Source of the DNA: Candidatus Saccharimonadota bacterium
Lineage (GTDB): Bacteria > Patescibacteriota > Saccharimonadia > Saccharimonadales > JACDBH01
Length of the DNA: 64,000 nt
Direction of reading: 5' to 3'
Assembly: GCA_028289135.1 (NCBI GenBank)
Contig: JAQGGW010000008.1
Location: 34,385 to 98,384, forward strand
The position numbers and the translations under genes are program-made. Below are positions 5,145-37,087 of this stretch, in pieces; position 1 is the stretch's first letter; every line of letters begins with the position of its first letter. Under the pieces are notes generated by a model that was given only the letters and a program-made list of their open reading frames with translations, was not told the DNA's origin and did no database searches.

Positions 5145-5615
5145 TTAACGCTTCCTCCGCGGCTTAACGCCTTTTTTATGACTCTCTGGGAAAACCCAAA
5201 ACCGGTACCAGCAATAGTTCCAAACCGTAAAGAACCCGCTCGATACAAACTGGCCAAGATACGGTGTTAGCCCGGCACTCTTTAGCATAGCAACAATTAA
5301 GTAATCCAGCACAAAATCGACGAGCGTAATAAAAATATAGCGGGCGTTTGTCTTGGCCAAATGTTCTTTGAGGTGCGGGTTTTTAAATACCCAGAAGCGC
5401 TGGAGCAGGTAGTTGATGACCCAGCCAAAAACGTTGGCTGCAAGCTTTGCCCACCAAAGGCTGAGGTGAAGACCCTTGTCGGCCGCAAAAAAGATGAGGT
5501 AGCCAGTCCAGAAATAGGCCCCGCCGCTGATCATATACTCAACGAACTGGATAATAAGGCGCTTTTTGCGCTTTTGCGAGGCCTTGGACGGTTTCGAAGA
5601 TTTGGACGTTTTCAT
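5145..5615 (-). CDS. GtrA-family membrane protein (polyprenyl-sugar handling)
   Basis: 156 aa with a basic N-terminus and 4 TM helices. FVEYMISGGAYFWTGY...VINYLLQRFWVFKN is typical of the GtrA-like family. Confidence 0.7.
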   Translation of the reverse strand: MKTSKSSKPSKASQKRKKRLIIQFVEYMISGGAYFWTGYLIFFAADKGLHLSLWWAKLAANVFGWVINYLLQRFWVFKNPHLKEHLAKTNARYIFITLVDFVLDYLIVAMLKSAGLTPYLGQFVSSGFFTVWNYCWYRFWVFPESHKKGVKPRRKR

Positions 5616-5831
5616 AATTTTCTTAAAATTCGTTACGGCTTACGTACAATAGTGCAGTCCAGGATGAAAGCCGAGCACAAAAGTTGAGATGTATTTAACA
5701 TACATTGAGACTTTTTGACGCAGGCTTTCGCCTGGAATGTGCATTGTACGTAAGCCATAACTAAGAGCTTACGGTTATCTAATGGTAGCATATGCCTAGG
5801 TGCTTGAGATACAATACCCCTATAAATACTC

Positions 5832-7223
5832 ATGAAAAAACTTGACCTGCATAAACTCCGATTCTGGCTTTTTACCACCCTGCTAGTTACCGCGCCCCTG
5901 TCAAAATATCCTTCCATAGCCTCCCCGCTGTACAATTTTAGCTCTTTTAGGATCGGTTTTTACCCTGTTCTGTCCCTGTTATTTGTACTTTGCACTTTCC
6001 CATTTAGTCTCAAATCGTTATCAAAGCTATACCAGCAGTCCCGTACTAGCATTTTAAGTATTGCAGTATTAGTATTTGTATCTCTTATGGGACTGACGAC
6101 AGCAATATATAAAGCCCGCTCTATCCTTTTGGTGTTATCCGTATTGATGCTGCTTTGTTTGCTTGTATCGGCATGGTCATACATTAAAAGTGAACTCTCT
6201 CCTAACAAATACCCTCAACTCGTTAAAGCAGTCTTGATTGCAGGGTGCGTTTATGGAGTAGTTTCCGTGCTTCAATTTAGTTTTGCGGGCTTTGGCCACG
6301 AATCTTTTGGCCTGTTATGTAGTGGCTGTAACAGCCAGGTGTTTGGCTTCCCTCGTATTAGTGGTTTTGCTGCCGAGCCGCAGTTCCACGCGAATGCTCT
6401 TTTGATTTACTACTTTATTGGACTGGGTGTTTTTTATAGCTCACGCTCAAGGCTTGCGCTTAGCTCCGCTGTTTTGTCACTAATTGGGATTGGTCTAACA
6501 TTTTCCAGAGGAGCCTACTTAGCAGCCGGCCTCAGCTCTGTACTCTTTTTTATTTTGCTACGCCTACAGAAGCTGGTACAAATAAAGACCGTTGCATTGC
6601 ATTTCGGCATACTAGTTGTTGCCGTATTTATTGTGGCCGGCTTGTTTATCGCCTCTTCAAGCTACCGCTACCGTTCTACGCCGGATATAGCCTATAAAAC
6701 CTTCCGTAGTATGGTGCAGCAGGCGAGTCTGAATGTAATAAAACTACCTGAGAGCAAAAGTACTATCGGCTTTATGCCTTCTGGTTTGGTACAGGCATCA
6801 GGACAGGAGCGGATAGGCGCAGCAAACTTGGCTATTAAAGCCTGGAACTTTAACTTTCGCACAAGAGTGTTTGGGGTCGGACTTGGTAACTTAGGTCCGT
6901 TTACTATCCAAAATATCTCTGCGAACGTTCCTGAAAACCTTACTGTTTATATATACTACATCCTAGTTCTGAGCGAGCTTGGGATTGTAGGACTTTTTGC
7001 ACTCCTAAGTATGTTTGCGGGTACGCTTAAAGGTTTTATGAAACGATTTTGGAATAGTAAGAATGCGGCTGTGTATTCTGGCATATTTTGCCTTGGTATA
7101 GCGTTTTTAATACAATATTGCTTCTTCGGCAGCTATATTAATGTGCCTTACATTTGGCTCTGGTTCGGAATAATCCTTGGGCTTAGTCCAAAAGTGCGTA
7201 ATAGCGCTACACTTGAGATCTAA
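5832..7223 (+). CDS. O-antigen ligase/polymerase-like (Wzy_C domain) polytopic membrane protein
   Basis: 463 aa with more than 10 TM helices. The central TFSRGAYLAAGLSS motif and following loop are typical of the Wzy_C / WaaL / PglL family. Confidence 0.65.
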   Translation: MKKLDLHKLRFWLFTTLLVTAPLSKYPSIASPLYNFSSFRIGFYPVLSLLFVLCTFPFSLKSLSKLYQQSRTSILSIAVLVFVSLMGLTTAIYKARSILLVLSVLMLLCLLVSAWSYIKSELSPNKYPQLVKAVLIAGCVYGVVSVLQFSFAGFGHESFGLLCSGCNSQVFGFPRISGFAAEPQFHANALLIYYFIGLGVFYSSRSRLALSSAVLSLIGIGLTFSRGAYLAAGLSSVLFFILLRLQKLVQIKTVALHFGILVVAVFIVAGLFIASSSYRYRSTPDIAYKTFRSMVQQASLNVIKLPESKSTIGFMPSGLVQASGQERIGAANLAIKAWNFNFRTRVFGVGLGNLGPFTIQNISANVPENLTVYIYYILVLSELGIVGLFALLSMFAGTLKGFMKRFWNSKNAAVYSGIFCLGIAFLIQYCFFGSYINVPYIWLWFGIILGLSPKVRNSATLEI

Positions 7224-7244
7224 TATATAATCAGGCTTCTCTGG

Positions 7245-8576
7245 CTAGTTAACCGGCTTTTTAATACTATACTTTAGTATTTTTTTGCTTTTTGTACTGG
7301 TTCCTACTATTGCTATACCAGCCATTCCAAAAAACACATACGCTAAAGTATCATCAGCCCAAGCATGCGTAAGCATATTTATAAATATAGTACCAACTAG
7401 TATTGCCAACACTGCCCTTGGCAATACTTCGGTATGTTTATCCCATAAACTCTTGCCTAACATAGCTATAAACAACATAAACAAGCCTAATCCTATGAGT
7501 CCTGCCTCTTGCCCTATTTGTAAAAAATAGTTTTCGGCAATTCTTGACATTTTCGTATTACGCAGAGAAGCAGGCCCCGCACTACCTACGCCTTTGCCTA
7601 GTGGTGTATTATAAATATCTTTGACTCCAGATTTTAATGCGCTCGAATGCTGTTCATTTGAACTCTGAAGAGATGTGGATTTTTCATTAGTATGAAATAA
7701 CATGTTTTGAGCAATATCATTATTACGGAGGCTAACTGTGACAATACCGACAAATAAAACCGCTAAAGCCGTAACAATATAAACCTGCTTCTTTTTTGTG
7801 GGATCCTGGATTGACCATAACGAAAAGCACACTAGTGATACCATCAATCCTATCCATGCGCCCCTAGAATAGCTACCATAAAGGGCAATTAGACTTGCCG
7901 CACTTGTAATATAAACGTAAATTCGCTTCTTCCTGGTTTTAATAACCTCAGCAAAAAGCAATGTGCATATTAACATCATATAGGCTCCAAAAGCATTAGG
8001 CCCTCTGAGTGTAGACTGTACTCGGAAGAAGCTTTGTTTTCCGTCAATAGTTTCGAATAAAGGTATAGTATTTCTCCCGTACCCAAAGTGTGCAAGAAAC
8101 TCTTTTGGCAATATAGTCATTTGAAGAATGCTAAAAATAATGACTAAGATAGCGGGTATAAAAACCAGCTTTTCCCAATGAAAACGATATCTATGAGCTG
8201 CCAAAGATACAACACCTAGAAATAGTACATATCTTGTGTCAATTATGAACCCATAGATTGCAGCGTTACGATTTACGTTTCCGACTAGCAGGCCATAAAT
8301 AGTTGCTATAGCAATTGCAGTTAGGTATAAAATTCCAGCTTGTACAACCCTATTTTTAATCGACTTTTTCAAAAGTGTAAGATCTTTAAATAAGATAATA
8401 ATCGCAACAATGCATAGACCTAAGAGTAGTATTTCTTTCCAGATACGTATTAGATCAAAATGTGCAAAATGACTTGCAAAAAAAGTGGTAAATAATGCAT
8501 GAAAAGGGAGTAGCACTAGTATTATTGATGAGCCAACTCCAATGATTCTGTAATAAAGGTCGTTTCGCTTCTGCAT
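7245..8576 (-). CDS. second O-antigen ligase/polymerase-like (Wzy_C domain) membrane protein
   Basis: 443 aa, polytopic, with a YGSYSRGAWIGLMVS motif. It is a divergent paralog of 5832..7223. Confidence 0.65.
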   Translation of the reverse strand: MQKRNDLYYRIIGVGSSIILVLLPFHALFTTFFASHFAHFDLIRIWKEILLLGLCIVAIIILFKDLTLLKKSIKNRVVQAGILYLTAIAIATIYGLLVGNVNRNAAIYGFIIDTRYVLFLGVVSLAAHRYRFHWEKLVFIPAILVIIFSILQMTILPKEFLAHFGYGRNTIPLFETIDGKQSFFRVQSTLRGPNAFGAYMMLICTLLFAEVIKTRKKRIYVYITSAASLIALYGSYSRGAWIGLMVSLVCFSLWSIQDPTKKKQVYIVTALAVLFVGIVTVSLRNNDIAQNMLFHTNEKSTSLQSSNEQHSSALKSGVKDIYNTPLGKGVGSAGPASLRNTKMSRIAENYFLQIGQEAGLIGLGLFMLFIAMLGKSLWDKHTEVLPRAVLAILVGTIFINMLTHAWADDTLAYVFFGMAGIAIVGTSTKSKKILKYSIKKPVN

Positions 8577-8600
8577 ACTCCCTAGTATACTTGTTATTGG

Positions 8601-10037
8601 ATGAAGAATAATACTTCTTTAATATATGGTTTTTTCCTCATTGTTGGTGACTTTTTAGCGCTTATCGGTGCGTTTATTAGTGCTTTCATCCTTCGCGTTA
8701 CGCTCGACAACCGCCCTACCATTGCCCGCATTACATCCGCCCAGTATCTTAAAGTTTTCTTGCTACTATTGCCTTTTTGGCTGATTATATTTGGCCTACT
8801 AGGACTTTATAACAAAAATACTTACGAAAACCGGTTTTCGGAATTTGGCCGGCTAATAATTGGTTCATTCATCGGCATTTTATTTGTAATTAGTTATGGT
8901 TATATTACTAATACCCCCATCTTTCCGGCCCGGCTCGTTACTGTCTATGGCTTTTTGTTAGCACTCTGTTTTATGTTGCTTTTTCGAACACTGGCCAGAG
9001 TAATCCGCCGCGGCTTATTTAGCTATGGTTATGGGGTTAATCATGTCCTGATTGTAGGCAATACCATCGTTACGGACGAACTTATAACCTCTTTAGAAAA
9101 CACAGAAGTTACGGGATATAAAGTGGTGGGGATTGTCAGCACCAACACTAAGCACGGCAGCAAACACAAACAACACATTTTTGAATCCTTTGAAGAAGCT
9201 ATAAAAAAGCTTAAAAACGAATCGGTGCATAGCATAATCCAAACCGAACTTTACGTTATGGCCGGCCAAAACAGCGAAATCTTAACCTATGCCCAAGAAA
9301 ACCACATCGCCTACAGGTTTGTGCCGGGCAACAGCGAGCTTTTTGTCGGTAATATTGAAGTGGATTTGTTCCAATCTATCCCTGTTATTGCCGTGCACCA
9401 GACGGCACTGGTCGGCTGGGGGCGGATTGTAAAGCGCATTTTCGACATTTTCGCGTCACTTATTTTTATTATTATTGCGTCCGTTCCAATGCTGCTAATT
9501 GCCTTTGTTATTAAAATTACCGACCCGCGCGGCAAGATTTTTTATAAACCAAAGCGTCTGGGCCGGTTTGGCAACACATTTAACTGCTACAAATTCCGCA
9601 GTATGTACCAAAAATACAATATGAGCCCAGAAGAAGGCTTTGCCAAAATGGGACGCTTGGACTTGCTTAAGCAATACCGGGAAAATGGCGACAGACTGCC
9701 GCGTGATCCGCGCATTACGCCGATTGGCCGCTTTATCCGCAAGTTCTCTCTGGACGAGCTTCCGCAGCTCTTTAACGTGCTTAAGGGCGATATTAGCCTG
9801 GTTGGCCCGCGCGCGCTTGACCATTTTGAGCTTGACCAGTACGCCAAGAAAAACCTTATTTTATCGGTTAAAACCGGCCTGACTGGCCTGGCCCAAATCT
9901 CGGGCCGCAGTGATATCCCGTTTGAAGAACGCCGCAAGCTTGACCTGTACTACGTCCAAAACTGGAGCTTCTGGAACGACCTAGTGATTGTCGCCAAAAC
10001 TGTGTCCGTGGTACTTTTTCACCGAGGGGTACGCTAA
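8601..10037 (+). CDS. polyprenyl-phosphate glycosyl-1-phosphate transferase (WbaP/CpsE-type initiating enzyme)
   Basis: 478 aa with N-terminal TM helices and a central Rossmann-like region. The C-terminal Bac_transf motifs are KRIFDIFASL..., KFRSM, DPRITPIGRFIRKFSLDELPQLFNVLKGDISLVGPRA. Confidence 0.85.
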   Translation: MKNNTSLIYGFFLIVGDFLALIGAFISAFILRVTLDNRPTIARITSAQYLKVFLLLLPFWLIIFGLLGLYNKNTYENRFSEFGRLIIGSFIGILFVISYGYITNTPIFPARLVTVYGFLLALCFMLLFRTLARVIRRGLFSYGYGVNHVLIVGNTIVTDELITSLENTEVTGYKVVGIVSTNTKHGSKHKQHIFESFEEAIKKLKNESVHSIIQTELYVMAGQNSEILTYAQENHIAYRFVPGNSELFVGNIEVDLFQSIPVIAVHQTALVGWGRIVKRIFDIFASLIFIIIASVPMLLIAFVIKITDPRGKIFYKPKRLGRFGNTFNCYKFRSMYQKYNMSPEEGFAKMGRLDLLKQYRENGDRLPRDPRITPIGRFIRKFSLDELPQLFNVLKGDISLVGPRALDHFELDQYAKKNLILSVKTGLTGLAQISGRSDIPFEERRKLDLYYVQNWSFWNDLVIVAKTVSVVLFHRGVR

Positions 10038-10039
10038 AA

Positions 10040-11131
10040 GTGAAGGTAGCTATTGTCCACGACTGGCTGGTGGGCGGGGGAGCGGAGCGCGTGGTTGAGG
10101 AAATCCATAAGCTCTACCCTGATGCTCCCATTTACACGTCCTACTGCACGCCCGAATGGCGCGAGCGTTTGGACGGCAAAGTAGTTACCGGCTGGCTGCA
10201 GCATTTAGGACGGATTCGGAAATTTATCCCGGTTTTAAGGATTTGGTGGTTTACGCATCTGGACTTTACAGGGTATGACATGGTCATTAGCAGTTCCGGC
10301 AATGGCGAAGCTTTTGGTATTAAAACCCCGCGCGATACTTTACATGTTAACTATTGCCACGCTCCAACTCATTTTTATTGGCGATTTTATGATAAATATC
10401 TTGAACAGCCCGGTTTTGGGGCTTTTAACCCGCTGGCGCGCTTGGGCCTAAAGATTTTAGTAAAACCCCTGCGTGCATGGGATTATAAAGCTGCACAGCG
10501 TGCTAATTACTTCATTGCCAATTCAAACCATATTAAAGATGAAATTAAAGAGTTTTATGGACGTGATTCGGTTGTAATTTTTCCTCCCGTGAATACTTAT
10601 CGTTTTTCAAAAGTTACAACAAAAAAAAGAGCGGGTTTCGTTACGGCGTCACGCCAAGTACCTCAGAAGAAACTTGATATTATTATTGGTGCTGCCAACG
10701 AGCTTAAACTTCCCCTATTAGTCATTGGACGCGGGCCCGAGCATGAAAGGCTTGCAAGTCTCGCAGGGGATACCGTGACGCTTCGTAATGACGTGAGTGA
10801 TGAAGAAATGCCAATCCTGTTTGCATGTGCTGAGGCGTTCTTATTTGCTGCCTACGAAGACTTTGGCGTGACGCCGGTGGAAGCATTGGCTTCCGGAACT
10901 CCCGTACTTGCTTATAAGCTTGGGGGAGCACTTGATTATATTCAGCCTGGTGTTAATGGTGAATTCTTCAACATCCAAAGCGTGCCATCTTTATGTGCGG
11001 CAATACAAAAGTTTGATTTGGCAAAATTTTCAGAATCTGCCGTACGTGAATCAGCTCAGAAATTTAGTTCGCAAGCTTTTGCTGCTTCTTTAACTAAATA
11101 TATTCAACTCATAACGAAAGGAATGTCATGA
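10040..11131 (+). CDS. glycosyltransferase, GT4 family
   Basis: GTG start. MKVAIVHDWLVGGGAERV N-terminus and a C-terminal E..FG.TPVEALASGTPV motif (the GT-B EX7E region). Confidence 0.7.
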   Translation: MKVAIVHDWLVGGGAERVVEEIHKLYPDAPIYTSYCTPEWRERLDGKVVTGWLQHLGRIRKFIPVLRIWWFTHLDFTGYDMVISSSGNGEAFGIKTPRDTLHVNYCHAPTHFYWRFYDKYLEQPGFGAFNPLARLGLKILVKPLRAWDYKAAQRANYFIANSNHIKDEIKEFYGRDSVVIFPPVNTYRFSKVTTKKRAGFVTASRQVPQKKLDIIIGAANELKLPLLVIGRGPEHERLASLAGDTVTLRNDVSDEEMPILFACAEAFLFAAYEDFGVTPVEALASGTPVLAYKLGGALDYIQPGVNGEFFNIQSVPSLCAAIQKFDLAKFSESAVRESAQKFSSQAFAASLTKYIQLITKGMS

Positions 11132-12144
11132 AAAACATACTAGTAACTGGCGGTGCTGGATTTATTGGTAGTCATACGGCAGTAGAACTTATTGCAGCCG
11201 GCTACAATGCAGTCATTGTCGATAATCTAAGTAATTCTAAAGAGAGTGCACTGACAGGAATAAAAGAAATTTCTGGAGCTACTCCTTCTTTTTACAATCT
11301 TGACTACAGCAATGACGAAAAATTAAAAGAAATTATCTTAAAGGAATCTGTTGATGGAGTCATACATTTTGCAGCGTTTAAAGCCGTAGGCGAATCAACT
11401 GAAACACCTCTTAAGTATTATGCTAATAACGTTGCTGGATTCGTAGGGCTATTGAGCACTTTAGAAAAACTTGGGATCCCGATTGTATTCTCGTCCTCAT
11501 GTACGGTATACGGTGAGCCAGACAGCCTGCCGGTCAATGAGCAAGCCCCTATAAAGCCTGCTGAGTCACCTTACGGCACTACCAAGCAGATGGATGAGAC
11601 TATTCTGAGAGACGCTACAAAGGCTAGCAAAAAACTCAAGAGCATAGCCCTTCGTTATTTCAACCCAGTAGGCGCGCATCCGTCGGGGCTTATTGGTGAA
11701 TTGCCGCTTGGTCGGCCAAGCAATCTTTTTCCAGTGGTCACACAAGCAATTGCTGGGGTTGGAAAGGAACTCACAGTGTTTGGAACCGATTATGATACGC
11801 CGGACGGTAGTTGTGTACGTGATTATATACATGTAGTAGACCTTGCGAAAGCGCATATAAAAGCACTGGAGTATTTAAACGGTCAGCAGCAAGGGTTTTA
11901 TGATGTGTTTAATATCGGCTCCGGTAAAGGCAATACGGTTCTTGAGGTCATTAAAGCTTTTGAGGAAACAACGGGTAAAAAAGTACCACACATACTTGGA
12001 GCAAGGCGGGATGGTGACATTGTTGCAACCTATGCAAATTGCAGCAAGGCAAATGAATTATTGGGCTGGAAAACTGAAAAGACTCTAACTGACAGTTGTC
12101 GTGATGCCTGGAACTGGCAAACTAAAATTACACCTGCGCTTTAA
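11128..12144 (+). CDS. galE: UDP-glucose (or UDP-GlcNAc) 4-epimerase
   Basis: 338 aa with TGGAGFIGSH, an SSS..YG region, and the YGTTK catalytic YxxxK. The ATGA overlap with the upstream GT indicates coupling. Confidence 0.85.
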   Translation: MKNILVTGGAGFIGSHTAVELIAAGYNAVIVDNLSNSKESALTGIKEISGATPSFYNLDYSNDEKLKEIILKESVDGVIHFAAFKAVGESTETPLKYYANNVAGFVGLLSTLEKLGIPIVFSSSCTVYGEPDSLPVNEQAPIKPAESPYGTTKQMDETILRDATKASKKLKSIALRYFNPVGAHPSGLIGELPLGRPSNLFPVVTQAIAGVGKELTVFGTDYDTPDGSCVRDYIHVVDLAKAHIKALEYLNGQQQGFYDVFNIGSGKGNTVLEVIKAFEETTGKKVPHILGARRDGDIVATYANCSKANELLGWKTEKTLTDSCRDAWNWQTKITPAL

Positions 12145-12637: not shown

Positions 12638-12646
12638 CTATAATCT

Positions 12647-13678
12647 TTATTTTTGCAATCGCTTGGCAACGTCACCAACGTTTTGGGCATAGTTTTTATT
12701 AGTGACCAAAACCCCATGCTGAGTATTAATTACCACCACGTTATCGAGCCCAATTACTGCCACCGGAACTTCAGTGTCATTACGAACATAACTATTTGTT
12801 GCACTCTCGATTTCAATCTTTTCTCCTCTAGTGTGATTGCCAGAGTCATCCTTGCCACTGATATCATGTAAATCTTTAAATGAACCAATGTCTGCCCAGT
12901 CAAAACTGCCAGTTACTACAATTGCGTCTTTTACTTTTTCTGAAAGTGCCAGCTCTAAGGGTTCTGTAATAAAACTAAGGTACGTTTCGTCGCGGTTTTT
13001 TGACGCAAACAATGCTTCGTAGTCTGAAGTCATCCGTTCGGAATTATTAGCCATTTCGCGCTCAAACGTTTTAAGTGTTCCAACTAAATACCCCGTATTC
13101 CAAAGATATTTACCGCTCGCTATAAATTTTTCGGCAGTTCGTTTGTCCGGCTTTTCTTTGAAGCTCATCAAGTTGTGCGCGTCACGCCATCCCTTTAATT
13201 TACCATCGCGTTCCATATAACCAAGTCCCGTCGAAGGATAACTTGGGTTCACTCCAATAAAAACAAGCTTTTCCTCTGTCTCAGCTATTTCGCCCGCCTT
13301 AAGCATTGTAGCCGCAAATCCATCTGCATTACGTACCAAGTGGTCGGCCCATAAAAATAGAATTGGCTCGTCGGCCCATTTACGCTTTTTAATTTCGGTT
13401 AGTGCAAGAAGTAAGCAAGATGCAGTACCGCGGCGGCCAGGCTCAGGAATAATATTTTTCTTGCCTATATCTTTAAGCTGTTCAAGAACATGATGTACGT
13501 GGGAAACTTCCGGAATAACTATTACTTTGTCTGCACTGGTAATCTGCAGTACCCGGTTAACGGTATTTTGGAGTAGGCTCTTATCGTTTACTAAACTCAG
13601 TAAGTGTTTTGGGTAACTATGAGTAGACAAAGGCCACAGTCTTGTTCCCGAACCCCCAGCAATTATTACGACTATCAT
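12647..13678 (-). CDS. manC: mannose-1-phosphate guanylyltransferase (nucleotidyltransferase domain only)
   Basis: 343 aa starting MIVVIIAGGSGTRLWPLSTHSYPKHLL, the typical GDP-mannose pyrophosphorylase signature. There is no C-terminal cupin/PMI domain. Confidence 0.8.
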   Translation of the reverse strand: MIVVIIAGGSGTRLWPLSTHSYPKHLLSLVNDKSLLQNTVNRVLQITSADKVIVIPEVSHVHHVLEQLKDIGKKNIIPEPGRRGTASCLLLALTEIKKRKWADEPILFLWADHLVRNADGFAATMLKAGEIAETEEKLVFIGVNPSYPSTGLGYMERDGKLKGWRDAHNLMSFKEKPDKRTAEKFIASGKYLWNTGYLVGTLKTFEREMANNSERMTSDYEALFASKNRDETYLSFITEPLELALSEKVKDAIVVTGSFDWADIGSFKDLHDISGKDDSGNHTRGEKIEIESATNSYVRNDTEVPVAVIGLDNVVVINTQHGVLVTNKNYAQNVGDVAKRLQK

Positions 13679-13817
13679 TTGCCATAATAATAACAGAATT
13701 TTTTATTAGCATCAGCTCAAATTAGATAAGTTAGCGAATGATACAACAATCTGGCCATATATTTGAAATAGTTATGCTTTTTTGATAATATAAATATGAT
13801 ATTTTAAAATAAATAGT

Positions 13818-14384
13818 ATGCACAAAACAAGCTCTCGTCCATCTTCTAAGCACCTCCCCAAGAACACTTTTGTAAAAATAGTGATAATACTATTAGTTAT
13901 ACTAATTTTACTGGTCTCTTTAGGTCATAGGACTCTGAATAAAAAGCAAAAAACTAACCCGCCGAAAATTACCACGGCTGCACCGAGCACTAACATAAAT
14001 CTTGACCCTCCAACACAAGAAGAAAAGAAAATTACCGAAGAAAATAAAACTAAAAATCTTAATGAAAGTGTCGCTCCTCCAACTATTGATTCAAATGGCC
14101 TTAGGGCTGTAACTCCTGTAATTTCATATGCTGATAAAAATGGGGCTTCAGCATATATAAACGGGATCTTTGAAGAAGGTGGTACATGTATGGCAGAATA
14201 TTCTCACGGCGATGATAAAATCACGACTACGTCGACGGGTTTTCAAAATTCCAATTACACCAGTTGCGAACCTTTGACCCTTCCTGGGCCTTTAAATATA
14301 AAAGGTGACTGGAGTCTAATTGTTAGTTATAAATCCACTACCTCTAGCGGCAAATCGGCATCAATGCTCGTTAGGGTCGATTAA
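13818..14384 (+). CDS. hypothetical N-terminally membrane-anchored protein
   Basis: 188 aa with a basic N-terminus, one TM helix (FVKIVIILLVILILLVSL), a Pro/Thr/Lys-rich linker and a small Cys-containing domain. Confidence 0.45.
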   Translation: MHKTSSRPSSKHLPKNTFVKIVIILLVILILLVSLGHRTLNKKQKTNPPKITTAAPSTNINLDPPTQEEKKITEENKTKNLNESVAPPTIDSNGLRAVTPVISYADKNGASAYINGIFEEGGTCMAEYSHGDDKITTTSTGFQNSNYTSCEPLTLPGPLNIKGDWSLIVSYKSTTSSGKSASMLVRVD

Positions 14385-14388
14385 AGCT

Positions 14389-16365: not shown

Positions 16366-16503
16366 CAAAAATGAATCAAATAAGCCCAGCCATGGAATTA
16401 ATGTTTACTAAGTTTAGAAGAAAGTAATATTTACATTATACTGCTCATGCAATTCAAAAGTAGCGAGTGGTCTGGTATCATTAGATAACAATCAAAGGAA
16501 GTC

Positions 16504-17574
16504 ATGAACAGTAAAAGTAAAATTTTTGTTGCTGGCCATAATGGCTTAGTCGGAAGTGCGATTGTACGCAAGCTTGTATCTCAAGGATACACTAATATTA
16601 TAGTAAAGACTTCGAGCGAACTGGATTTAAGGGATCAGCTAGCTACTGAGAATTTCTTTGAGAATGAGAAGCCTGAGTATGTATTTTTATCTGCCGCTAA
16701 AGTAGGCGGGATAATGGCAAACAATACTTATCGGGCAGATTTTATTTACGAAAACCTTTTAATACAAAATAATGTCATTGGATCAAGTTATAAAAATAAT
16801 GTAAAAAAATTATTATTCTTAGGAAGCAGTTGTATCTATCCAAAAAATGCTCCACAGCCACTTAAAGAAGACAGCCTACTAACTAGTGACCTCGAATATA
16901 CTAACGAACCTTATGCAGTAGCTAAAATTGCGGGAATAAAACTTACTGAAAGTTTCAATATCCAGTACGGCACAAACTACCTTTCTGTTATGCCTACAAA
17001 CCTGTACGGTATTAATGACAATTTTGATTTAGAAAAATCCCATGTCATGCCAGCGCTAATTCGTAAAACAATACTTTCAAAAATGCTAGAAGAAAAAGAA
17101 TACGAAGAAGTGGCTAACAATTTAAATATTGGATTTGAATCAAAAGAACAAATTATTGAAGTACTAAAAAAATACGGCATTACAATTACAGGCCAAGGAT
17201 CCGTCGATATTGCCGTTTGGGGAACTGGTACGCCATACCGCGAGTTCATGCATGTAGATGATATGGCTGATGCGTGTGTATTTGTAATGAATAACATCAG
17301 TTTCAGCGATGTATCAAAGGGTATGGCTGAAGTTAAGAATACCCATCTAAATGTCAGCACAGGTTCGGATATAACAATCAAAGAATTAGCTGAGTTGATT
17401 AAGCAAATAGTTGGCTTCAGTGGTACTATTACATTTGATCCAAGTAAACCCGATGGCACGCCTCGTAAATTGATGAGTCCAGATAAACTTAGTAAACTTG
17501 GTTGGAAATATCAGATAAATCTTAATGATGGCTTAAAGCGCACGATTGAATGGTACCAAGGAAAAAATGCGTAG
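16504..17574 (+). CDS. fcl: GDP-L-fucose synthase (GDP-4-keto-6-deoxymannose 3,5-epimerase/4-reductase)
   Basis: 356 aa with KIFVAGHNGLVGSAI, LGSSCIYPK, NEPYAVAKIAG (YxxxK) and VWGTGTPYREFMHVDDMA. It carries an internal ~35-aa insertion relative to typical Fcl length. Confidence 0.8.
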   Translation: MNSKSKIFVAGHNGLVGSAIVRKLVSQGYTNIIVKTSSELDLRDQLATENFFENEKPEYVFLSAAKVGGIMANNTYRADFIYENLLIQNNVIGSSYKNNVKKLLFLGSSCIYPKNAPQPLKEDSLLTSDLEYTNEPYAVAKIAGIKLTESFNIQYGTNYLSVMPTNLYGINDNFDLEKSHVMPALIRKTILSKMLEEKEYEEVANNLNIGFESKEQIIEVLKKYGITITGQGSVDIAVWGTGTPYREFMHVDDMADACVFVMNNISFSDVSKGMAEVKNTHLNVSTGSDITIKELAELIKQIVGFSGTITFDPSKPDGTPRKLMSPDKLSKLGWKYQINLNDGLKRTIEWYQGKNA

Positions 17575-23814: not shown

Positions 23815-23831
23815 ACATCAAGGTAATCAAG

Positions 23832-23880
23832 GCAAAAACCTTGAGAATATTCAAAAATGGCTTTTGCTTTTTATTTATTA
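23832..23880 (+). terminator. candidate intrinsic terminator splitting the glycan operon
   Basis: GCAAAAACC (23832-23840) pairs with GGCTTTTGC (23859-23867) with one mismatch and a large loop. TTTTTATTTATT follows. It lies in the only sizeable gap (118 bp) of the 16.5-34.6 kb gene train. Confidence 0.4.
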
Positions 23881-23932
23881 GTTAGTGCAAATCATATCCG
23901 TACTTTAGTTTATAGTATAAAATAAGGAGTAC

Positions 23933-24739: not shown

Positions 24740-25392
24740 AACTACACCTAGGCTGCGGACAGGTTTACCTAGAGGGATACGTAAACATTGACTACCCACT
24801 CGACAAGCATACGGTACAAGAAAAAACTGTGGCAGATGAATTCCATGATCTCACTAAATTACGTTATAAAGCCAAAACAATAGACGAGGTACGACTGCAC
24901 CATGTTTACGAACATTTTCCGCGTCATATCGCATTGGCACTGCTCGCGTCATGGCAAGGCTGGCTCAAAAAGGGCGGTAAGATTCATATTGAAGTGCCGG
25001 ACTTTGATGAAAGCGCGAAGCTCGTCATCGACCCGTCATTGCCCGAACGCGACCGTAAAGTAGCGCTCCGTCACATCTTTGGCTCAAATGAAGCTCCATG
25101 GGCTACGCACTATGAAGGCTGGTCTGCAGAACGATTGCGTGAAGCTATGAAGTTATTTGGTTTTAAGAATATTAAAATCGAACAGACAGCTTACTTAGCA
25201 ACCAGGAATGTTATCGTCACCGCTAACAAAGCTGGTTTGACTGAAATTAGTACTCAGAAAGCCCGTGAACTCACCAAGAAATACCTTCGCAACTTTACAC
25301 TCAATGAAAGCAAATTTGAAACCTCGCTACTCGAAATATGGCTCGATGAATACGACGCACAGTATAAGCTGACTGCATCAAAAAATAAATGA
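24736..25392 (+). CDS. putative SAM-dependent methyltransferase (Methyltransf_11/23-like)
   Basis: MKLHLGCGQVYLEGYVNID... N-terminus and VRLHHVYEHF, typical of small LPS/glycan-locus methyltransferases. ATGA overlaps on both sides. Confidence 0.5.
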   Translation: MKLHLGCGQVYLEGYVNIDYPLDKHTVQEKTVADEFHDLTKLRYKAKTIDEVRLHHVYEHFPRHIALALLASWQGWLKKGGKIHIEVPDFDESAKLVIDPSLPERDRKVALRHIFGSNEAPWATHYEGWSAERLREAMKLFGFKNIKIEQTAYLATRNVIVTANKAGLTEISTQKARELTKKYLRNFTLNESKFETSLLEIWLDEYDAQYKLTASKNK

Positions 25393-27146: not shown

Positions 27147-28327
27147 AAATACTACACACGGTTGAATTTTATTACCCATCAATAGGTGGTGCACAGGAAG
27201 TCGTAAGGCATTTAAGCGAACGTATGGTACGGCTTGGGCATGACGTTACAGTAGTGACTACCGCAATACCAAATCGTACAAACCGTATCCATAATGGCGT
27301 TAAGATTGTAGATTTTGAGATAAGTGGCAATACAGTTAATGGTATCAAGGGTGAAAAAAAGAAATATCATGACTTCCTTAGAAAAGAGAAGTTCGATGTA
27401 GTCATGAACTATGCGGCTCAGCAGTGGACAGCAGATGCGTTTTTTGAAGTTATAGACGACATCAAAGCAAAAAAGATTTTTGTGCCTTGTGGCTATTCGG
27501 CCTTATACGACCCAGCATATATTAACTACTTCAAAAAACTTCCAGCCATACTTAAGAAATACGACGCTACCGTCTATCTTTCGAGTAATTACCGTGATAT
27601 CAACTTTGCTCGTGATAATAAACTGAGGAACATAACCATAATTCCAAACGGAGCTAACGAAGAGGAGTTCACCGATCCATTATCACCCGAACGCATACGT
27701 TACTTGCGGACTAAATACGGTATAGGTGGCCTTACAATAATGACCATCGGGTTGTACGGCGAAAAGGGCCACATGGATGTTCTACGCGTATTTAGAAAGT
27801 TGCCAGTTTCCAAAGCTACATTTATTTCTGCAGGGAGTATACGCCCTCAGGATGGACATTATACTGATTTTGAGGCCGCCGCCGAGCGCCTTAACCTCAG
27901 TAGAAAAATGATAGGTAAACGAGTTGTGATGGTAGATGGCGGAAACCGAGAGGATGTACGCGATTTGCTTAAGATGTCAGACATATACGTATTTCTATCT
28001 AACATAGAATGCAGCCCGCTAGTTTTGTTTGAAGCTGCAGCTGCAGGCGTACCGTTTATTGCCACACCAGCTGGCAACAGTGCAGAAATCGCAAAATGGA
28101 CCGGTTCTGGGATAATTGTAAAAAGTCATCCTGCCGAAAACAGCCGTGTACGTGCCGACCTTAAGGACACCTTATGGCAACTAACTAAACTAGCCCACAG
28201 CCCAAAAAAACGAAAAATACTCGGGGAAAAAGGCCATGATGCTTGGAAGATGAAATATACCTGGGATAGGCTTACTGAGGAATATCTGACTCTCTACGAA
28301 GATGTACTTAAAGGCATAAGTCGATGA
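27143..28327 (+). CDS. glycosyltransferase, GT4 family
   Basis: TTG start with AGGAG upstream. MKILHTVEFYYPSIGGAQEVV and FLSNIECSPLVLFEAAAAGVPFIAT. Confidence 0.7.
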   Translation: MKILHTVEFYYPSIGGAQEVVRHLSERMVRLGHDVTVVTTAIPNRTNRIHNGVKIVDFEISGNTVNGIKGEKKKYHDFLRKEKFDVVMNYAAQQWTADAFFEVIDDIKAKKIFVPCGYSALYDPAYINYFKKLPAILKKYDATVYLSSNYRDINFARDNKLRNITIIPNGANEEEFTDPLSPERIRYLRTKYGIGGLTIMTIGLYGEKGHMDVLRVFRKLPVSKATFISAGSIRPQDGHYTDFEAAAERLNLSRKMIGKRVVMVDGGNREDVRDLLKMSDIYVFLSNIECSPLVLFEAAAAGVPFIATPAGNSAEIAKWTGSGIIVKSHPAENSRVRADLKDTLWQLTKLAHSPKKRKILGEKGHDAWKMKYTWDRLTEEYLTLYEDVLKGISR

Positions 28328-29211
28328 TAGTCGTACGATTAATGGGGGGCCATAGCAACCAGCTTTTCCAATACGCGATTGGGAAAAATTTATCTAAAAA
28401 GCTAGGCACAAATTTAATGTTAGACCTAAGCTGGTTCAAGGATTTTGCTGATGTTGATACGCCACGGTTCTATGAGATTGGTTGTTATCCACTTGAGGCA
28501 ACTGTATGTGAGGATCTTAGTCGGTTACGCATTGTAGATCCACGCCAACCCATCCGAGTTACTAACCGGCTGCTACGTAAGATGCACTTAGGAAGCGCCA
28601 TCTGGATGTACTACGAGCAGGGTCAAGGCTATAACCCAGAAGCCTTAGAACAACCCGATAACACTATGCTTATAGGTTACTGGCAGACAGAAAAGTATTT
28701 TAAAGACATCCGCAATGAACTGATTGCAGAACTTGAACCAACCTCAAAGTTATCTGACAAAAATTTAGCAATTATGAGTAAGATCAAAAACTCTGAATCT
28801 GTGTCAATCCATGTAAGGCGTGGTGACTATATCACCAATAAAAATGCCAATACTTTTCATGGTTCTCTTGGAGCTGACTACTATCAAAAAGCGCAGGAGT
28901 ATATCCAAAAAAAAATTGGTATAAAAAATATACAAGTTTTTGTATTTTCGAATGATATTCCATGGTGTAAAAAGAATCTCAAGTTTGACGTGCCGGTAAC
29001 ATTCGTGGAGGGCAACGACAAAGGGTCTGATGATATGCGCCTAATGAAAAACTGTAAGCACTTCGTAATGGCCAACAGCTCGTTTAGCTGGTGGGGTTCA
29101 TGGTTATGTACCAATCCTAATAAAATTGTAGTGGCACCAAAAGTATGGTTCAAGGATAAAACAGCTAATGATGCAATAGACATCATGCTTAATTCTTGGG
29201 TGCGATTATAG
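28324..29211 (+). CDS. alpha-1,2-fucosyltransferase (GT11 family)
   Basis: GGHSNQLFQYA, HVRRGDY and ANSSFSWWGSWL are the three hallmark GT11 motifs. This fits the GDP-fucose genes in the locus. Confidence 0.8.
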   Translation: MIVVRLMGGHSNQLFQYAIGKNLSKKLGTNLMLDLSWFKDFADVDTPRFYEIGCYPLEATVCEDLSRLRIVDPRQPIRVTNRLLRKMHLGSAIWMYYEQGQGYNPEALEQPDNTMLIGYWQTEKYFKDIRNELIAELEPTSKLSDKNLAIMSKIKNSESVSIHVRRGDYITNKNANTFHGSLGADYYQKAQEYIQKKIGIKNIQVFVFSNDIPWCKKNLKFDVPVTFVEGNDKGSDDMRLMKNCKHFVMANSSFSWWGSWLCTNPNKIVVAPKVWFKDKTANDAIDIMLNSWVRL

Positions 29212-29214
29212 CTT

Positions 29215-34578: not shown

Positions 34579-34589
34579 TCCTGCATGGT

Positions 34590-35942
34590 CTATTCGAGAT
34601 AGTCACCGGTAGACCAGTCAGCAATTTTGCTCATATACTGCGCAAAATCTGCATGGTCTTTTGAGTTTCGATATTTCTCAAAACTATCAACACTATCAAA
34701 TACTGTATTTTGAATAAAAATTCTGCCTTTACGAAAATCCATACTTTTACTTACATTCCATAGCCTAGCGCCATTAGTTTTTTTACCAATTTTTTTTAGT
34801 CTCCCTATTGCTTCATCCATTTCTTCATCACTTGCACTAGTCTTCATAGAGAAGAAAACAATATGTCTTAGCGGACCTTCATCGGTAATGTCGGTGTAGA
34901 GAGAGCCAGATTCTTCGGCAAGATCATGATCAACCATTAGCTTAACCAAATTAGGGAAGTTTACCTTACGCTTCCAGCCTAAAACCTTCTCGGCTTTTGA
35001 CGGATCTCCCGTCAAAACGTCAACTTCTGCTGGACGATAAAATTCGGGGTTAATTTTAATTAGAGTTGTTCCGGTTTTAGTATCAACTCCTACTTCTTTT
35101 TCGCCTTTACCATGCCATTTAATATCAATACCAATATTTGCAAAAGCTAGCTCACAAAATTCTCTTATTGAATGTGTCTCACCAGTCGCCAAAACAAAAT
35201 CATCCGGTTTATTGTGCTGCAGGATTCGCCACATACCCTCTACATAATCGCCGGCATATCCCCAATCTCGTTTTGAGTCTACATTACCCAGTTCAATATA
35301 TTCCTGTTTACCTAATTTGATTCTAGCGACTGCTTTACTAATTTTGCGTGTTACAAATTCAGGACCGCGGCGTTCGCCTTCGTGGTTAAAGAGAATTCCG
35401 CAAGCTGCGAACATACCATAACTCTCGCGGTAATTACGGGTTATCCAATGTCCGAATAATTTTGCAACACCGTAGGGGCTACGTGGATGAAAAGGGGAAT
35501 CTTCGTTATAGCCGACATCTGGTCGGTTGTAATCAAGGCCACCAAACATTTCAGAAGTCGAAGCTTGATAAAAACGAGTAGTTTTTTCAAGTCCCGATAA
35601 CCTAATAGCTTCTAGTACATTTAACACGCCCTTGCCAGTTACATCGGCCGTTAAAATTGGATCCTTGAAAGAGTAACCAACGTGGCTAATTGCAGCTAAA
35701 TTATATACTTCGTCTGGTTTTACTAATTGCATGGTTCTTACTAAAACAGCCAGGTCGAGCAAATCAGCCATAACAAATTCTACATATGGCATTTCATTTT
35801 TTAGCTTTTGGTACCGCGGATGAGAAGTTTCCATCTGACCACGAATGACGCCGTAAACTTTATACCCTTTAGAATGCAGTAAAGCTGCTAAGTGTCCTCC
35901 GTCTTGTCCTGCAATGCCGGTAATAAGTGCGCTTTTGGCCAT
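34590..35942 (-). CDS. gmd: GDP-mannose 4,6-dehydratase fused to a C-terminal Dabb (stress-responsive alpha/beta-barrel) domain
   Basis: Start moved to MAKSALITGIAGQDGGHL, which is preceded by AAGGAG. Gmd motifs STSEMFG, SPYGVAKL and NHEGERRG are present. An extra ~95 aa (LRHIVFFSMKTSASDEEMDEAIGRLKKI...FEKYRNSKDHADFAQYM) resembles Dabb. Confidence 0.85.
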   Translation of the reverse strand: MAKSALITGIAGQDGGHLAALLHSKGYKVYGVIRGQMETSHPRYQKLKNEMPYVEFVMADLLDLAVLVRTMQLVKPDEVYNLAAISHVGYSFKDPILTADVTGKGVLNVLEAIRLSGLEKTTRFYQASTSEMFGGLDYNRPDVGYNEDSPFHPRSPYGVAKLFGHWITRNYRESYGMFAACGILFNHEGERRGPEFVTRKISKAVARIKLGKQEYIELGNVDSKRDWGYAGDYVEGMWRILQHNKPDDFVLATGETHSIREFCELAFANIGIDIKWHGKGEKEVGVDTKTGTTLIKINPEFYRPAEVDVLTGDPSKAEKVLGWKRKVNFPNLVKLMVDHDLAEESGSLYTDITDEGPLRHIVFFSMKTSASDEEMDEAIGRLKKIGKKTNGARLWNVSKSMDFRKGRIFIQNTVFDSVDSFEKYRNSKDHADFAQYMSKIADWSTGDYLE

Positions 35943-35995
35943 CAGATGTCTCCTTAATGTATCCACTATTCTAACAGATATCGTATAGTTATAAT

Positions 35996-37087
35996 ATGAG
36001 TAGGATAGTTATTGACGCGCGGGAGTCGGGGACAAGCACCGGCCGGTACATCGACAAGCTGATCGAGCATATGCACACGCTTAAGCCGCAGCATGAGATA
36101 GTTGTCCTCGCCAAAAAACACCGCCTTGATTTTATGAAATCTGTCGCGCCAGGTTTTCAGACCGTCGAAACGCCTTTTAAAGAGTTTTCGCTGGGCGAAC
36201 AGCTTGGTTTTAGAAAACAAATAAAGTCGCTTAAGCCCGACCTCGTCCATTTTGGCAAAGTCGAGCAGCCAATCCTGTACACGGGCAGGGCGGTCACGAC
36301 CATGCACGACCTAACCACCGTCCGTTTTCGAAATCCGACCAAAAACGCCATTGTTTTTAAGCTCAAACAGCAGGTATATAAGATTGTTAATATTATAGCC
36401 GCGCATAAAAGCAGGGTGCTCATCACCCCAACCCAATATGTAAAAAATGATGTCGTAAAGTTCGCGCACATTAAGCCCGCCAAGGTTACCGTAACGCTGG
36501 AGTCGGCCGATGCCATAACCGGCCCAGCCACTCCAGTTGAAGCGCTCAAAGGCAAGCAGTTTATCATGTACATCGGCCGGCCAATGCTGCACAAAAACCT
36601 CGGCCGCCTGATGGACGCTTTTAAGATCATGCAGGAGACAAACCCTGAGCTTTATTTGGTATTAGCCGGCAAAAAAGACCCTTTATACGACGCACACGAG
36701 AAAAATGCGAAAGAAAAGGGCATCAAAAACATTATTTTTACCGGTTTTATCTCTGATGGCGAGCTAAAATGGCTCTATCAAAACACTGCCTGCTATGTTT
36801 TCCCAAGCCTCAGCGAGGGGTTTGGGCTGCCACCTCTGGAAGCCATGATCCACGGCGCCCCTGTTGCTAGCAGTAATGCGACCTGCCTCCCAGAGGTAAA
36901 CGGCGATGCCGCGGATTACTTTGACCCACTGGATAGCAGGGGAATGGCCGAAGTAGTACTGAACATTATTAACAACAACGCGCATGCAGAAGAATTAAAA
37001 CAACGCGGCAAAGTCCAGGTAGCCAAGTACTCGTGGGACCGCATGACCAAACAGACTTTAGAGGTCTATGACCGTGCCTTATCTTAA
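35996..37087 (+). CDS. glycosyltransferase, GT4 family (WbdA-like type), GC-richer than the tandem trio
   Basis: MSRIVIDARESGTSTGRYI and FPSLSEGFGLPPLEAMIHGAPVAS. Confidence 0.75.
   Translation: MSRIVIDARESGTSTGRYIDKLIEHMHTLKPQHEIVVLAKKHRLDFMKSVAPGFQTVETPFKEFSLGEQLGFRKQIKSLKPDLVHFGKVEQPILYTGRAVTTMHDLTTVRFRNPTKNAIVFKLKQQVYKIVNIIAAHKSRVLITPTQYVKNDVVKFAHIKPAKVTVTLESADAITGPATPVEALKGKQFIMYIGRPMLHKNLGRLMDAFKIMQETNPELYLVLAGKKDPLYDAHEKNAKEKGIKNIIFTGFISDGELKWLYQNTACYVFPSLSEGFGLPPLEAMIHGAPVASSNATCLPEVNGDAADYFDPLDSRGMAEVVLNIINNNAHAEELKQRGKVQVAKYSWDRMTKQTLEVYDRALS

Follow-up and report, generated by a model that had tools for sequence, protein, structure and literature searches.

Little is known about the surface chemistry of Saccharibacteria, which live attached to other bacteria. 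How such an organism builds a surface polymer, and to what it finally attaches it, is the question raised by a large glycan locus at positions 5145-37087 of a stretch of 64,000 nucleotides (the window; contig JAQGGW010000008.1 of assembly GCA_028289135.1, positions 34,385 to 98,384) from a Candidatus Saccharimonadota bacterium. An earlier note, written from the sequence alone, had described the locus as an ATP-binding cassette (ABC) transporter-dependent pathway for a cap-terminated glycan, equipped with two ligase-like enzymes, in a reduced organism expected to lack lipopolysaccharide (LPS). An ABC-dependent, probably cap-terminated and fucosylated polymer proved to be well founded; the WaaL-fold enzyme with a Wzy_C domain may be a ligase or, with lower probability, a polymerase. 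All protein families of the locus are known and similar loci exist in relatives. The added value lies in an order-wide core cassette, over which the ABC module forms a lineage-specific layer, and in WaaL-fold clades that lack the canonical histidine, in a phylum with hitherto unstudied surface glycans.

The window contains 84 open reading frames (ORFs) of at least 100 amino acids, and the 29 non-nested ORFs of the locus were all scanned against Pfam and the key ones also against NCBIfam. The listed gene content was recovered in full and in place (Table 1): the estimate of about 14 glycosyltransferases (GTs) corresponds to 14 genes with 15 GT domains, and the UDP-glucose 4-epimerase GalE, missing from that list, can be added. 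One initiating transferase and one exporter are found among the 29 ORFs. Seventeen genes, from the GDP-L-fucose synthase gene fcl at 16504 to a GT4 gene ending at 34578, run on one strand, mostly with overlaps of 4 nt, and form an operon of about 18 kb. The guess of a reduced organism without LPS fits as well: no LPS genes are encoded in the 64-kb window, and the close relatives are metagenome-assembled genomes of Candidatus Saccharibacteria/Saccharimonadales, the complete ones of 0.90-0.96 Mb. To our knowledge, bacteria of the candidate phyla radiation (CPR) possess neither LPS nor a lipid A-core acceptor. The locus takes about 3% of a genome of about 1 Mb for one surface polymer.

ABC-dependent synthesis of the polymer on a WbaP-type primer, as had been proposed, is well supported. 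The genes of the permease Wzm and the nucleotide-binding subunit Wzt are adjacent with a 4-nt overlap, the best PDB matches are O-antigen and teichoic acid exporters, and no Wzx flippase (Polysacc_synt or MOP family) was matched among the 29 ORFs, which contain a single initiator. Residues 58-375 of Wzt align to full-length Wzt of Aquifex aeolicus (8dku/7k2t), reaching into its C-terminal domain (phmmer, E 6e-71), and Wzt is also similar to the nucleotide-binding domains of TagH/TarH. The extra C-terminal domain seen in the earlier note spans approximately residues 270-424 and is indeed of the carbohydrate-binding Wzt_C type, with a score above the Pfam gathering threshold (GA); its sequence identity is 55-63% among members of the Saccharimonadales group and falls to 14-29% against distant Wzt proteins.

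Parts of this module recur in four other Saccharimonadales contigs (L066 to L069; related loci are cited by such numbers). L066 shares its gene order with the window all the way from Wzy_C to the GT11 gene; L067 and L068 carry genes for an immunoglobulin (Ig)-repeat surface protein, Fcl, Wzm, Wzt with a Wzt_C domain, a GT4 and the triad GT2, small protein and double GT2; and L069 encodes an Fcl-like epimerase, Wzm, Wzt, a STELLO-like GT and a GT4 before the contig ends. In L066, identities to the window are 70% for Fcl, 75% for Wzm, 68% for Wzt, 69% for the GT2 and 70% for the small methyltransferase MT23, and lower for the core proteins (Wzy_C 43%, polyprenyl-phosphate hexose-1-phosphate transferase (PGT) 56%, GT4 57%). 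Across the relatives' contigs, Fcl-Wzm-Wzt are 68-75% and GT2-MT23 66-74% identical.

The core cassette is distributed far more widely than the module. In more than 60 Saccharimonadales loci it consists of genes for a LexA-like helix-turn-helix (HTH) protein, GtrA and a Wzy_C protein and, divergently oriented, for the PGT and a GT4, which is probably the adaptor or second-sugar transferase. A scan with the PGT, restricted to one genome per species, retrieved 59 loci, 58 of them with 52-84% identity and nearly all from Candidatus Saccharibacteria/Saccharimonadales. The start of the LexA-like gene lies 1 nt past the gtrA stop codon and is preceded by GGAGG, and most of the 59 loci show synteny of this gene with gtrA; given this translational coupling and conservation, the locus really begins at 4673, left of the start at 5145 assumed so far. 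Proteins of about 150-160 aa that consist of LexA_DNA_bind only, without the S24 peptidase domain, are found at this place in over 50 related loci, and the LexA-like protein is possibly a dedicated regulator of envelope-glycan genes. GtrA-family proteins flip polyprenyl-phosphate sugars in other systems, and in most genomes the core is present without an obvious dedicated exporter besides this small protein. In a census of multi-transmembrane (TM) proteins in 62 loci, 60 loci had the PGT, 41 a Wzy_C protein of type 2 and three one of type 1; a Wzx-type flippase occurred in L027 only, and no Wzm recurred. Neither Wzx nor Wzz nor a tyrosine kinase was found in the cassette loci of five relatives with precomputed Pfam annotation. 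Genes for GalE, ManC, UDP-glucose dehydrogenase or GlmS often follow the core in relatives. No description of the cassette was found in the literature on O-antigen ligases of Saccharibacteria or Wzy of Patescibacteria; present in most environmental Saccharimonadales, the conserved set of PGT, GT4, Wzy_C and GtrA provides a defined genetic handle on the surface polymer.

The Wzy_C proteins of the window belong to two types, with 201 homologues for type 1 and 506 for type 2. They are 21% identical, and their families are homologous (hhalign 98.2%, E 3.8e-14, 368 columns). Searches of PDB sequences with either protein and with a 55-sequence profile gave no match even at E <= 10, so that it was fold comparison alone that tied the proteins to WaaL. 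The AlphaFold2 models (pLDDT 91.1 for type 2 and 87.9 for type 1) both have WaaL (7tpg) as their best PDB match in Foldseek, with E 9e-8 and TM-scores of 0.58/0.63 for type 2 and E 1.4e-6 for type 1, which bears out the WaaL-like fold attributed to them before; the next matches of both are the SEDS proteins FtsW and RodA. The WaaL fold is a GT-C-like fold of 12 TM segments that is related to SEDS proteins.

At the level of residues, the relationship is looser. R215, R288 and H338 were reported to be essential in WaaL and conserved in PglL (PMC3643930). In a profile alignment of type 2 with WaaL of E. coli K-12, which has a low hhalign probability (20%) and a register that agrees with the Pfam domain boundaries of both proteins, R238 corresponds to R215, column 310 to R288 and E348 to H338; column 310 is arginine in 44 of 55 sequences and histidine in 11, including the window protein. 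In type 1, R175, E182, R226 and R327 are invariant, and the two WaaL arginines are thereby kept (R226 and R327). Neither protein matches the PglL-specific family PF15864 with its PglL_A/PglL_B motifs (Pfam, E <= 0.001; Wzy_C was the only match), and with the R215/R288/H338 triad incomplete, the proteins are strict members of neither WaaL nor PglL. Motif GN1 (R-X11-24-GXG) is present in both as R-X16-20-GXG; motif GN2 (HN-X9-G-X2-4-G) reads EN-X9-G-X2-G in type 2 and is broken by a five-residue insertion in type 1. Since the WaaL, PglL and Wzy motifs are common to ligases and polymerases, homology cannot separate the two functions.

On the observed gene content, domain identities, fold, synteny and conservation, the following order of steps is proposed. 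The PGT would load hexose-1-phosphate on undecaprenyl phosphate at the cytoplasmic face of the membrane, the conserved GT4 would add an adaptor sugar, and the soluble GTs of the 18-kb operon would extend the chain, with the double GT2 as the likely repeat-forming polymerase. Fucose, derived from the activities of ManC, Gmd and Fcl, would be added by the GT11 enzyme, and the non-reducing end would be capped by a methyltransferase, for which MT23 is the best candidate. The C-terminal domain of Wzt would sense the finished end, Wzm/Wzt would export the lipid-linked polymer, and outside the membrane a WaaL-fold Wzy_C enzyme would move the glycan from undecaprenyl diphosphate to the final acceptor, most likely a surface protein and less likely a lipid. 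As a whole, this reading is judged slightly better than evenly balanced, and the putative ligase role, which is reasonable and unproven, is put at about one half.

Several observations argue for the ligase. Wzy_C goes with the conserved PGT and GT4 in a cassette that recurs in more than 60 loci, whatever glycan genes lie downstream, and a conserved PGT and GT4 imply a constant reducing end of the kind that a ligase recognises, as waaL serves both O-antigen pathways. Wzm/Wzt is the sole exporter in the window and in L066 and would deliver finished chains, the surrounding genes offer no further candidate for the last step, and the usual partners of a polymerase (Wzx, Wzz and tyrosine kinase) are missing from the annotated relatives as well as from the 64-kb window, in which Pfam scans detected neither Wzx nor Wzz/CpsCD. 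The shortcut of the earlier note, which had concluded from the ABC pathway that the Wzy_C proteins are ligases, is however not compelling, as the order-wide cassette exists without Wzm/Wzt in most genomes, Wzy_C domains also occur in beta-linking polymerases, and ligation by LCP enzymes is an alternative in monoderms.

The proposed pathway also has to face a number of contrary points. Neither type has the catalytic histidine of WaaL and PglL: the H338 equivalent is an invariant glutamate (E348) in 55 of 55 type-2 sequences, and in type 1 this position is variable, with no invariant histidine. The Wzy_C domain and the GN1/GN2 motifs are found in most beta-linking (inverting) Wzy polymerases (PMC12502699). 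In about 13 of the cassette loci, the slot is devoid of a Wzy_C gene, and neither an S-layer gene nor another acceptor protein was identified in the locus. The assignment of MT23 as a methyltransferase is marginal, with orthologues below the Pfam thresholds, and the second methyltransferase, MT11, is not conserved, being absent from the collinear L066. Monoderms normally attach ABC-exported polymers with LCP enzymes. LCP proteins are encoded in Saccharibacteria, such as TagU in S. epibionticum (PMC10633639), and could attach the polymer to peptidoglycan without Wzy_C.

The strongest alternative assumes two pathways: the Wzy_C proteins would be inverting Wzy-type polymerases of a short conserved repeat made by the PGT and GT4, with GtrA or a flippase from another part of the genome to flip it, and the ABC-exported fucosylated polymer would be linked to peptidoglycan by LCP enzymes, as are wall teichoic acid and streptococcal rhamnan. 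A retained GN1-like motif without the histidine required by ligases would fit this, as would the fact that most genomes with the cassette do not have Wzm/Wzt, the faster evolution of the Wzy_C genes compared with their neighbours, as seen in polymerases, and the Wzx/Wzy-type extracellular polysaccharide (EPS) cluster of S. epibionticum, which has a WaaL/Wzy-like gene and an LCP gene (tagU) nearby. Yet a Wzx lies within 10 kb in only one of the 62 loci of the census, the five annotated relatives have neither Wzz nor a tyrosine kinase in their loci, and Pfam scans of the 64-kb window revealed no LCP gene. Moreover, just one GT is conserved with the PGT, and the window encodes no second initiating transferase for the ABC pathway, so that the two pathways would share a primer. 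A separation into two pathways is thus considered possible but not probable. If it applied and the Wzy_C proteins were polymerases, the locus would be a cluster for cell-wall polysaccharide of the kind common in monoderms, though in an unusual host; if, on the other hand, the WaaL-fold enzymes were ligases that do without the canonical histidine, the range of chemistry known for this enzyme family would grow, and the enzymes might be of use in glycoconjugate engineering.

The preferred pathway with a Wzy_C ligase can be taken one step further, though only tentatively. The cassette might be a previously undescribed, order-wide envelope-glycosylation system of the Saccharimonadales, in which the histidine-less WaaL-fold clade, with its two interchangeable types, acts as a pathway-agnostic ligase onto surface proteins such as pilins and adhesins, transferring short glycans in most species and long ABC-exported, methyl-capped, fucosylated chains in the present lineage. 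This would make it the first system for general O-glycosylation in CPR bacteria, and a strain-variable "O-antigen" could shape host recognition and phage evasion by these epibionts.

A cap formed by methylation is plausible. Both methyltransferases that had been suggested as cappers lie in the operon; MT11 is a clear methyltransferase, and MT23 is marginal (Table 1). MT23 carries an N-terminal S-adenosylmethionine (SAM)-type motif, LHLGCG, is translationally coupled to the GTs on either side, and is 70-74% identical in L066 and L067, with a fixed place between the GT2 and the double GT2; it is the best candidate for a chain terminator. The PDB matches of MT11 are generic SAM methyltransferases only, the PDB sequence search with MT23 gave nothing meaningful, and neither protein matched WbdD-type terminators. 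At the MT23 position of L068 (15247-16125) stands an unrelated protein of 292 aa without Pfam match and with a glycine-rich EWGGGYG motif, which may be a non-orthologous methyltransferase replacement.

An alternative explanation is that the methyltransferases produce internal O-methyl sugars and no terminating cap, that the Wzt C-terminal domain recognizes something else or just tethers, and that chain length is not controlled by a cap. The weak Pfam assignment of MT23, the absence of MT11 from L066, the lack of a sequence match of either protein to a solved chain-terminating enzyme such as WbdD and the unrelated protein in L068 are in line with this view. Against it, Wzt proteins with a Wzt_C-type domain, where studied, are coupled to terminal modification (Cuthbertson et al., to the extent that this work is cited in PMC2943079), MT23 is as well conserved as Wzt and keeps its place, L067 has a methyltransferase immediately after Wzt, and the EWGGGYG motif of the replacement in L068 is, at the level of the motif only, typical of SAM binding. 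Internal methylation instead of a cap is therefore regarded as doubtful, and methylation of the chain end as the better reading.

The presence of two Wzy_C genes needs an explanation of its own. The earlier note had correctly seen two divergent, distantly homologous proteins; however, they do not look like a cooperating pair. Close relatives, with a PGT 67-82% identical to that of the window, have one Wzy_C type between gtrA and the PGT gene, never both: type 1 fills this slot on the PGT strand in L002 and L063, and type 2 does so on the gtrA strand in L070, L061 and L053. In L064, too, type 1 is the sole Wzy_C of the slot. In the window both genes are present, convergent and 21 nt apart, and both are full length with all family-invariant residues; an independent assembly from an SRA run (L060) shows the same arrangement. 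The best reading of the two genes is that of alternative alleles for a single slot, standing in tandem here, rather than of two designed roles. It is improbable that one of them is a redundant leftover of allelic replacement without a function of its own: such a leftover would agree with the single Wzy_C type of close relatives, the convergent genes with 21 nt between them, the separation of the type-2 gene from the gtrA-lexA operon that it normally heads and the 24 nt between the type-2 and PGT starts, but not with two full-length genes that keep every invariant residue, nor with the identical arrangement in L060. The 24-nt gap between the divergent starts (8577-8600) implies either that both promoters lie inside neighbouring coding sequences or that one start is mis-set. 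An arrival of type 2 together with the ABC module was rejected, as its closest relative, L070, is a standard cassette without the module.

Recent transfer of the locus from another phylum was likewise rejected, since the closest homologues of Wzt, Wzy_C and PGT are all of the Saccharimonadales type. The operon has a G+C content of 0.39 and the core one of 0.43, compared with 0.48 for the right and 0.42 for the left flank; the operon lies below the right flank, yet the left flank is low too. Modest dips of this kind are known from O-antigen and S-layer glycan clusters (PMC2943079).

Table 1. Genes of the glycan locus, with positions in the window, strand and profile scores in bits; PMI, phosphomannose isomerase.
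Feature	Position	Strand	Evidence and remarks
LexA-like HTH protein	4673..5143	-	DNA-binding domain only, 156 aa from Met39; PF01726 LexA_DNA_bind 58 bits
GtrA-family small membrane protein	5145..5615	-	PF04138 64.7 bits, full-length match; adjoins PGT cassette in relatives
Wzy_C type 1, WaaL-fold membrane enzyme	5832..7223	+	Pfam Wzy_C 27.7 bits, below GA 31.7
Wzy_C type 2, WaaL-fold membrane enzyme, common Saccharimonadales form	7245..8576	-	Pfam Wzy_C 46.1 bits, above GA 31.7
PGT, WbaP-type	8601..10037	+	Bac_transf 199.5 bits + CoA_binding_3; TIGR03025 366 bits (cut-off 295)
GT4	10040..11131	+	Glycos_transf_1 65.8 bits; after PGT in nearly all related loci, 47-83% identity
UDP-glucose 4-epimerase GalE	11128..12144	+	TIGR01179 395 bits (cut-off 262)
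Conserved hypothetical protein, 169 aa	12128..12637	-	Adjoins ManC; homologues in L004, L013 at 53-54%
ManC, mannose-1-phosphate guanylyltransferase, without PMI domain	12647..13678	-	NTP_transferase 134 bits + ManC beta-helix; TIGR01479 N-terminal part
Membrane-anchored protein, 188 aa, Pro/Thr/Ser-rich linker	13818..14384	+	One N-terminal TM segment; no Pfam match; homologue in L066
Membrane-anchored surface protein, 658 aa	14389..16365	+	N_BRCA1_IG (NBR1-type Ig repeats) 46.7 bits; ORF opens at 14320
Fcl, GDP-L-fucose synthase	16504..17574	+	NF047922 455.6 bits (cut-off 500), two stretches; first operon gene; 69-70% identical in L066-L068
Wzm, ABC-2 permease	17546..18400	+	PF01061 ABC2_membrane 62.9 bits; 71-75% identical in L066-L068
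Wzt, nucleotide-binding subunit	18397..19671	+	ABC_tran (PF00005) 77 bits; Wzt_C (PF14524) 50 bits, GA 30.4
STELLO-like GT	19672..20667	+	PF03385 41.6 bits; after Wzt in L066, L069
GT4	20634..21836	+	Glycos_transf_1 115.9 bits; follows in L066, L069 too
MT11, class I SAM methyltransferase	21846..22691	+	Methyltransf_11 65.3 bits; variable, absent from L066
GT4 (GT4c)	22672..23814	+	55-63% identical in L066-L068
GT2 (GT2a)	23933..24739	+	66-69% identical in L066-L068
MT23, small probable SAM methyltransferase	24736..25392	+	Methyltransf_23 29.6 bits, GA 27 (marginal)
Two-domain GT2, 585 aa	25389..27146	+	Two Glycos_transf_2 stretches, 211 bits; conserved in L066-L068
GT11 fucosyltransferase	28324..29211	+	126 bits
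Further GTs	GT4 27143, GT2 29215, GT2 30135, GT4 31035, GT4 32237, GT4 33436, to 34578	+	Pfam; mostly 4-nt overlaps
Gmd, GDP-mannose 4,6-dehydratase with C-terminal Dabb	34590..35966	-	TIGR01472 428.7 bits (cut-off 415); Dabb 35.9 bits
Last GT4 of the locus	35996..37087	+	Glycos_transf_1 96.7 bits; adjoins jag-yidC and replication origin region

Of the GDP-mannose to GDP-fucose route that had been called complete, ManC, Gmd, Fcl and a GT11 fucosyltransferase are present, but neither phosphomannomutase nor PMI was found among the 29 ORFs, and the route is complete only from mannose-1-phosphate. Fcl has 356 residues compared with the 308 positions of its model; about 40 residues are inserted near 200-240, and its length is the same in L066-L068. 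Gmd is fused to a Dabb (stress-responsive A/B-barrel) domain at residues 366-449. The double GT2 has as its best PDB sequence match the bifunctional chondroitin synthase (2z86/2z87, E 6e-26), which makes it a candidate for the chain-extending, repeat-forming polymerase. The 169-aa protein next to ManC matched nothing in Pfam, NCBIfam or the PDB.

The 188-aa and 658-aa proteins are the sole exported proteins of the locus and travel with the ABC module; their genes are co-transcribed, and the 658-aa protein is syntenic upstream of Fcl-Wzm-Wzt in L066, L067 and L068 with 50-56% identity. As glycan acceptors they are candidates only, and for the 188-aa protein this role is speculative. Pilins of cultured Saccharibacteria were predicted to be O-glycosylated, in a study that calls the glycosylation processes and machinery of these bacteria unexplored (bioRxiv 10.1101/2024.11.25.624915). 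The N-terminal part of the 658-aa protein (14467-15249) is a Cys-rich, extracytoplasmic domain of about 255 aa without Pfam model, which carries the motifs LLQKEQSLVTD and ATAGLYNYTPYQPN. It represents a large surface-protein family without assigned function, with 3497 cluster representatives at E <= 1e-3, 2003 of them at E <= 1e-30; the domain is usually N-terminal, three of the matches listed have 3-4 matched stretches, and elsewhere it is fused to lectins (Ricin B, B_lectin), CARDB, FG-GAP, NBR1-Ig and DUF5648. A glycan hydrolase or an S-layer protein was considered for the Ig-repeat protein and dropped, as its N-terminal domain belongs to an unannotated family to which no function can be assigned.

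The locus is bordered on the left by the LexA-like gene and a tRNA-Asn gene (3924-3998, minus strand), with a DUF3800 protein gene (2498-3130, minus strand) just left of the cassette, and on the right by jag, yidC, dnaA, dnaN and recF. Rfam matched tRNA only, and promoter and terminator scans of 4000-20000 were discarded, as shuffled sequence gave more matches. A type IV secretion cluster of the monoderm type (44285-62733, minus strand) adjoins the replication origin. It encodes a VirB4-like ATPase (50793-52712) that belongs to the CD1110 family, a TrsD/TraD-like protein (52735-53751) and, as very large proteins, one of 1279 aa with an MpaA-like amidase region and one of 1305 aa. The type IV secretion genes of S. 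epibionticum (SEML1_0006-0019) are essential, and their origin-proximal position is inferred only from the low locus-tag numbers. Among the related cassettes, L037 (3327-4121), L043, L044 and L057 have genes for a BacA/UppP undecaprenyl-diphosphate phosphatase and an ABC-2 permease beside the cassette and no Wzy_C in the slot. Between the PGT and GT4 genes of L063 (12852-13229), L064 (12910-13275) and L070 (7987-8358) lies a small gene for a four-helix bundle (Pfam 23S_rRNA_IVP and bAvd, the accessory variability determinant of diversity-generating retroelements), which is absent from the window.

Among known systems, the earlier note had likened the locus more to the S-layer glycosylation clusters of Geobacillus/Paenibacillus than to LPS loci, and as a list of parts the analogy is apt. 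The S-layer glycan (slg) clusters of G. stearothermophilus NRS 2004/3a and P. alvei encode WsaP/WsfP, Wzm/Wzt, WsaE and WsaB/WsfB. The likeness is one to the published model (PMC2943079), not an alignment to Wsa proteins such as WsaE or WsaB. A WbaP-type initiator with five TM segments and Wzm/Wzt are common to both, a Wzy_C membrane protein is the presumed final transferase in both, and both show overlaps of start and stop codons and a G+C content below that of the flank (PMC2943079). The methyltransferase and two GT domains that form one protein in WsaE (PMC2943079) are represented here by MT23 and the double GT2, encoded by adjacent genes with a 4-nt overlap. A target to go with the analogy was not found: Pfam scans of the locus detected no S-layer or S-layer homology (SLH) families, and no S-layer gene, SLH domain or tetratricopeptide repeat partner is present. 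Furthermore, the sugars of the locus are based on fucose and mannose, whereas those of slg clusters are rhamnose, the Wzy_C proteins lack the histidine common to WaaL and PglL, and the Wzy_C/PGT part belongs to an order-wide cassette with GtrA and a LexA-like regulator.

The O8/O9a systems of E. coli (WbdA/WbdD, Wzm/Wzt and WaaL) resemble the proposed pathway in the cytoplasmic assembly of the chain on a single lipid carrier, in a methyltransferase that modifies the chain end, for which there is a candidate here, in a Wzt C-terminal domain of the same Pfam family and in a WaaL-fold enzyme for the last step. They differ in the initiator, which is WecA in E. coli and WbaP-type in the locus, in the WbdD-like kinase and coiled-coil ruler, neither of which was detected in the locus, and in the H338 equivalent of WaaL, which is replaced in the Wzy_C proteins; the lipid A-core acceptor is, as is established for CPR bacteria, absent from the phylum. 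With the general and pilin O-oligosaccharyltransferases PglL and PilO (TfpO), the Wzy_C domain is shared, and en bloc transfer from undecaprenyl diphosphate to serine or threonine of surface proteins would fit; however, the PglL_A motif (PF15864) was not detected, the R/R/H triad is incomplete, and there is no adjacent pilin gene.

The wall teichoic acid (TagGH) and rhamnan (RgpCD) systems of monoderms are closer in cell type, in the similarity of Wzt to TagH/TarH and in a polymer that is probably wall-associated, but they use WecA/TagO-type initiation and LCP ligation, for which no gene is found in this window, and have neither Wzt_C nor Wzy_C. From the same phylum, the EPS cluster SEML1_0079-0083 of Southlakia epibionticum (PMC10633639) shares with the locus a polyprenyl-phosphate sugar transferase, a GT4, a WaaL/Wzy-like protein and a GT2. 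In contrast to the locus, it is Wzx-dependent, uses a small monotopic PGT, includes a tyrosine-kinase-like gene with LCP nearby, and is devoid of Wzm/Wzt, the GtrA/LexA-like pair and fucose genes. Transposon sequencing of S. epibionticum showed that its EPS genes, those for late steps included, are costly to lose (Cell 2023, PMC10633639).

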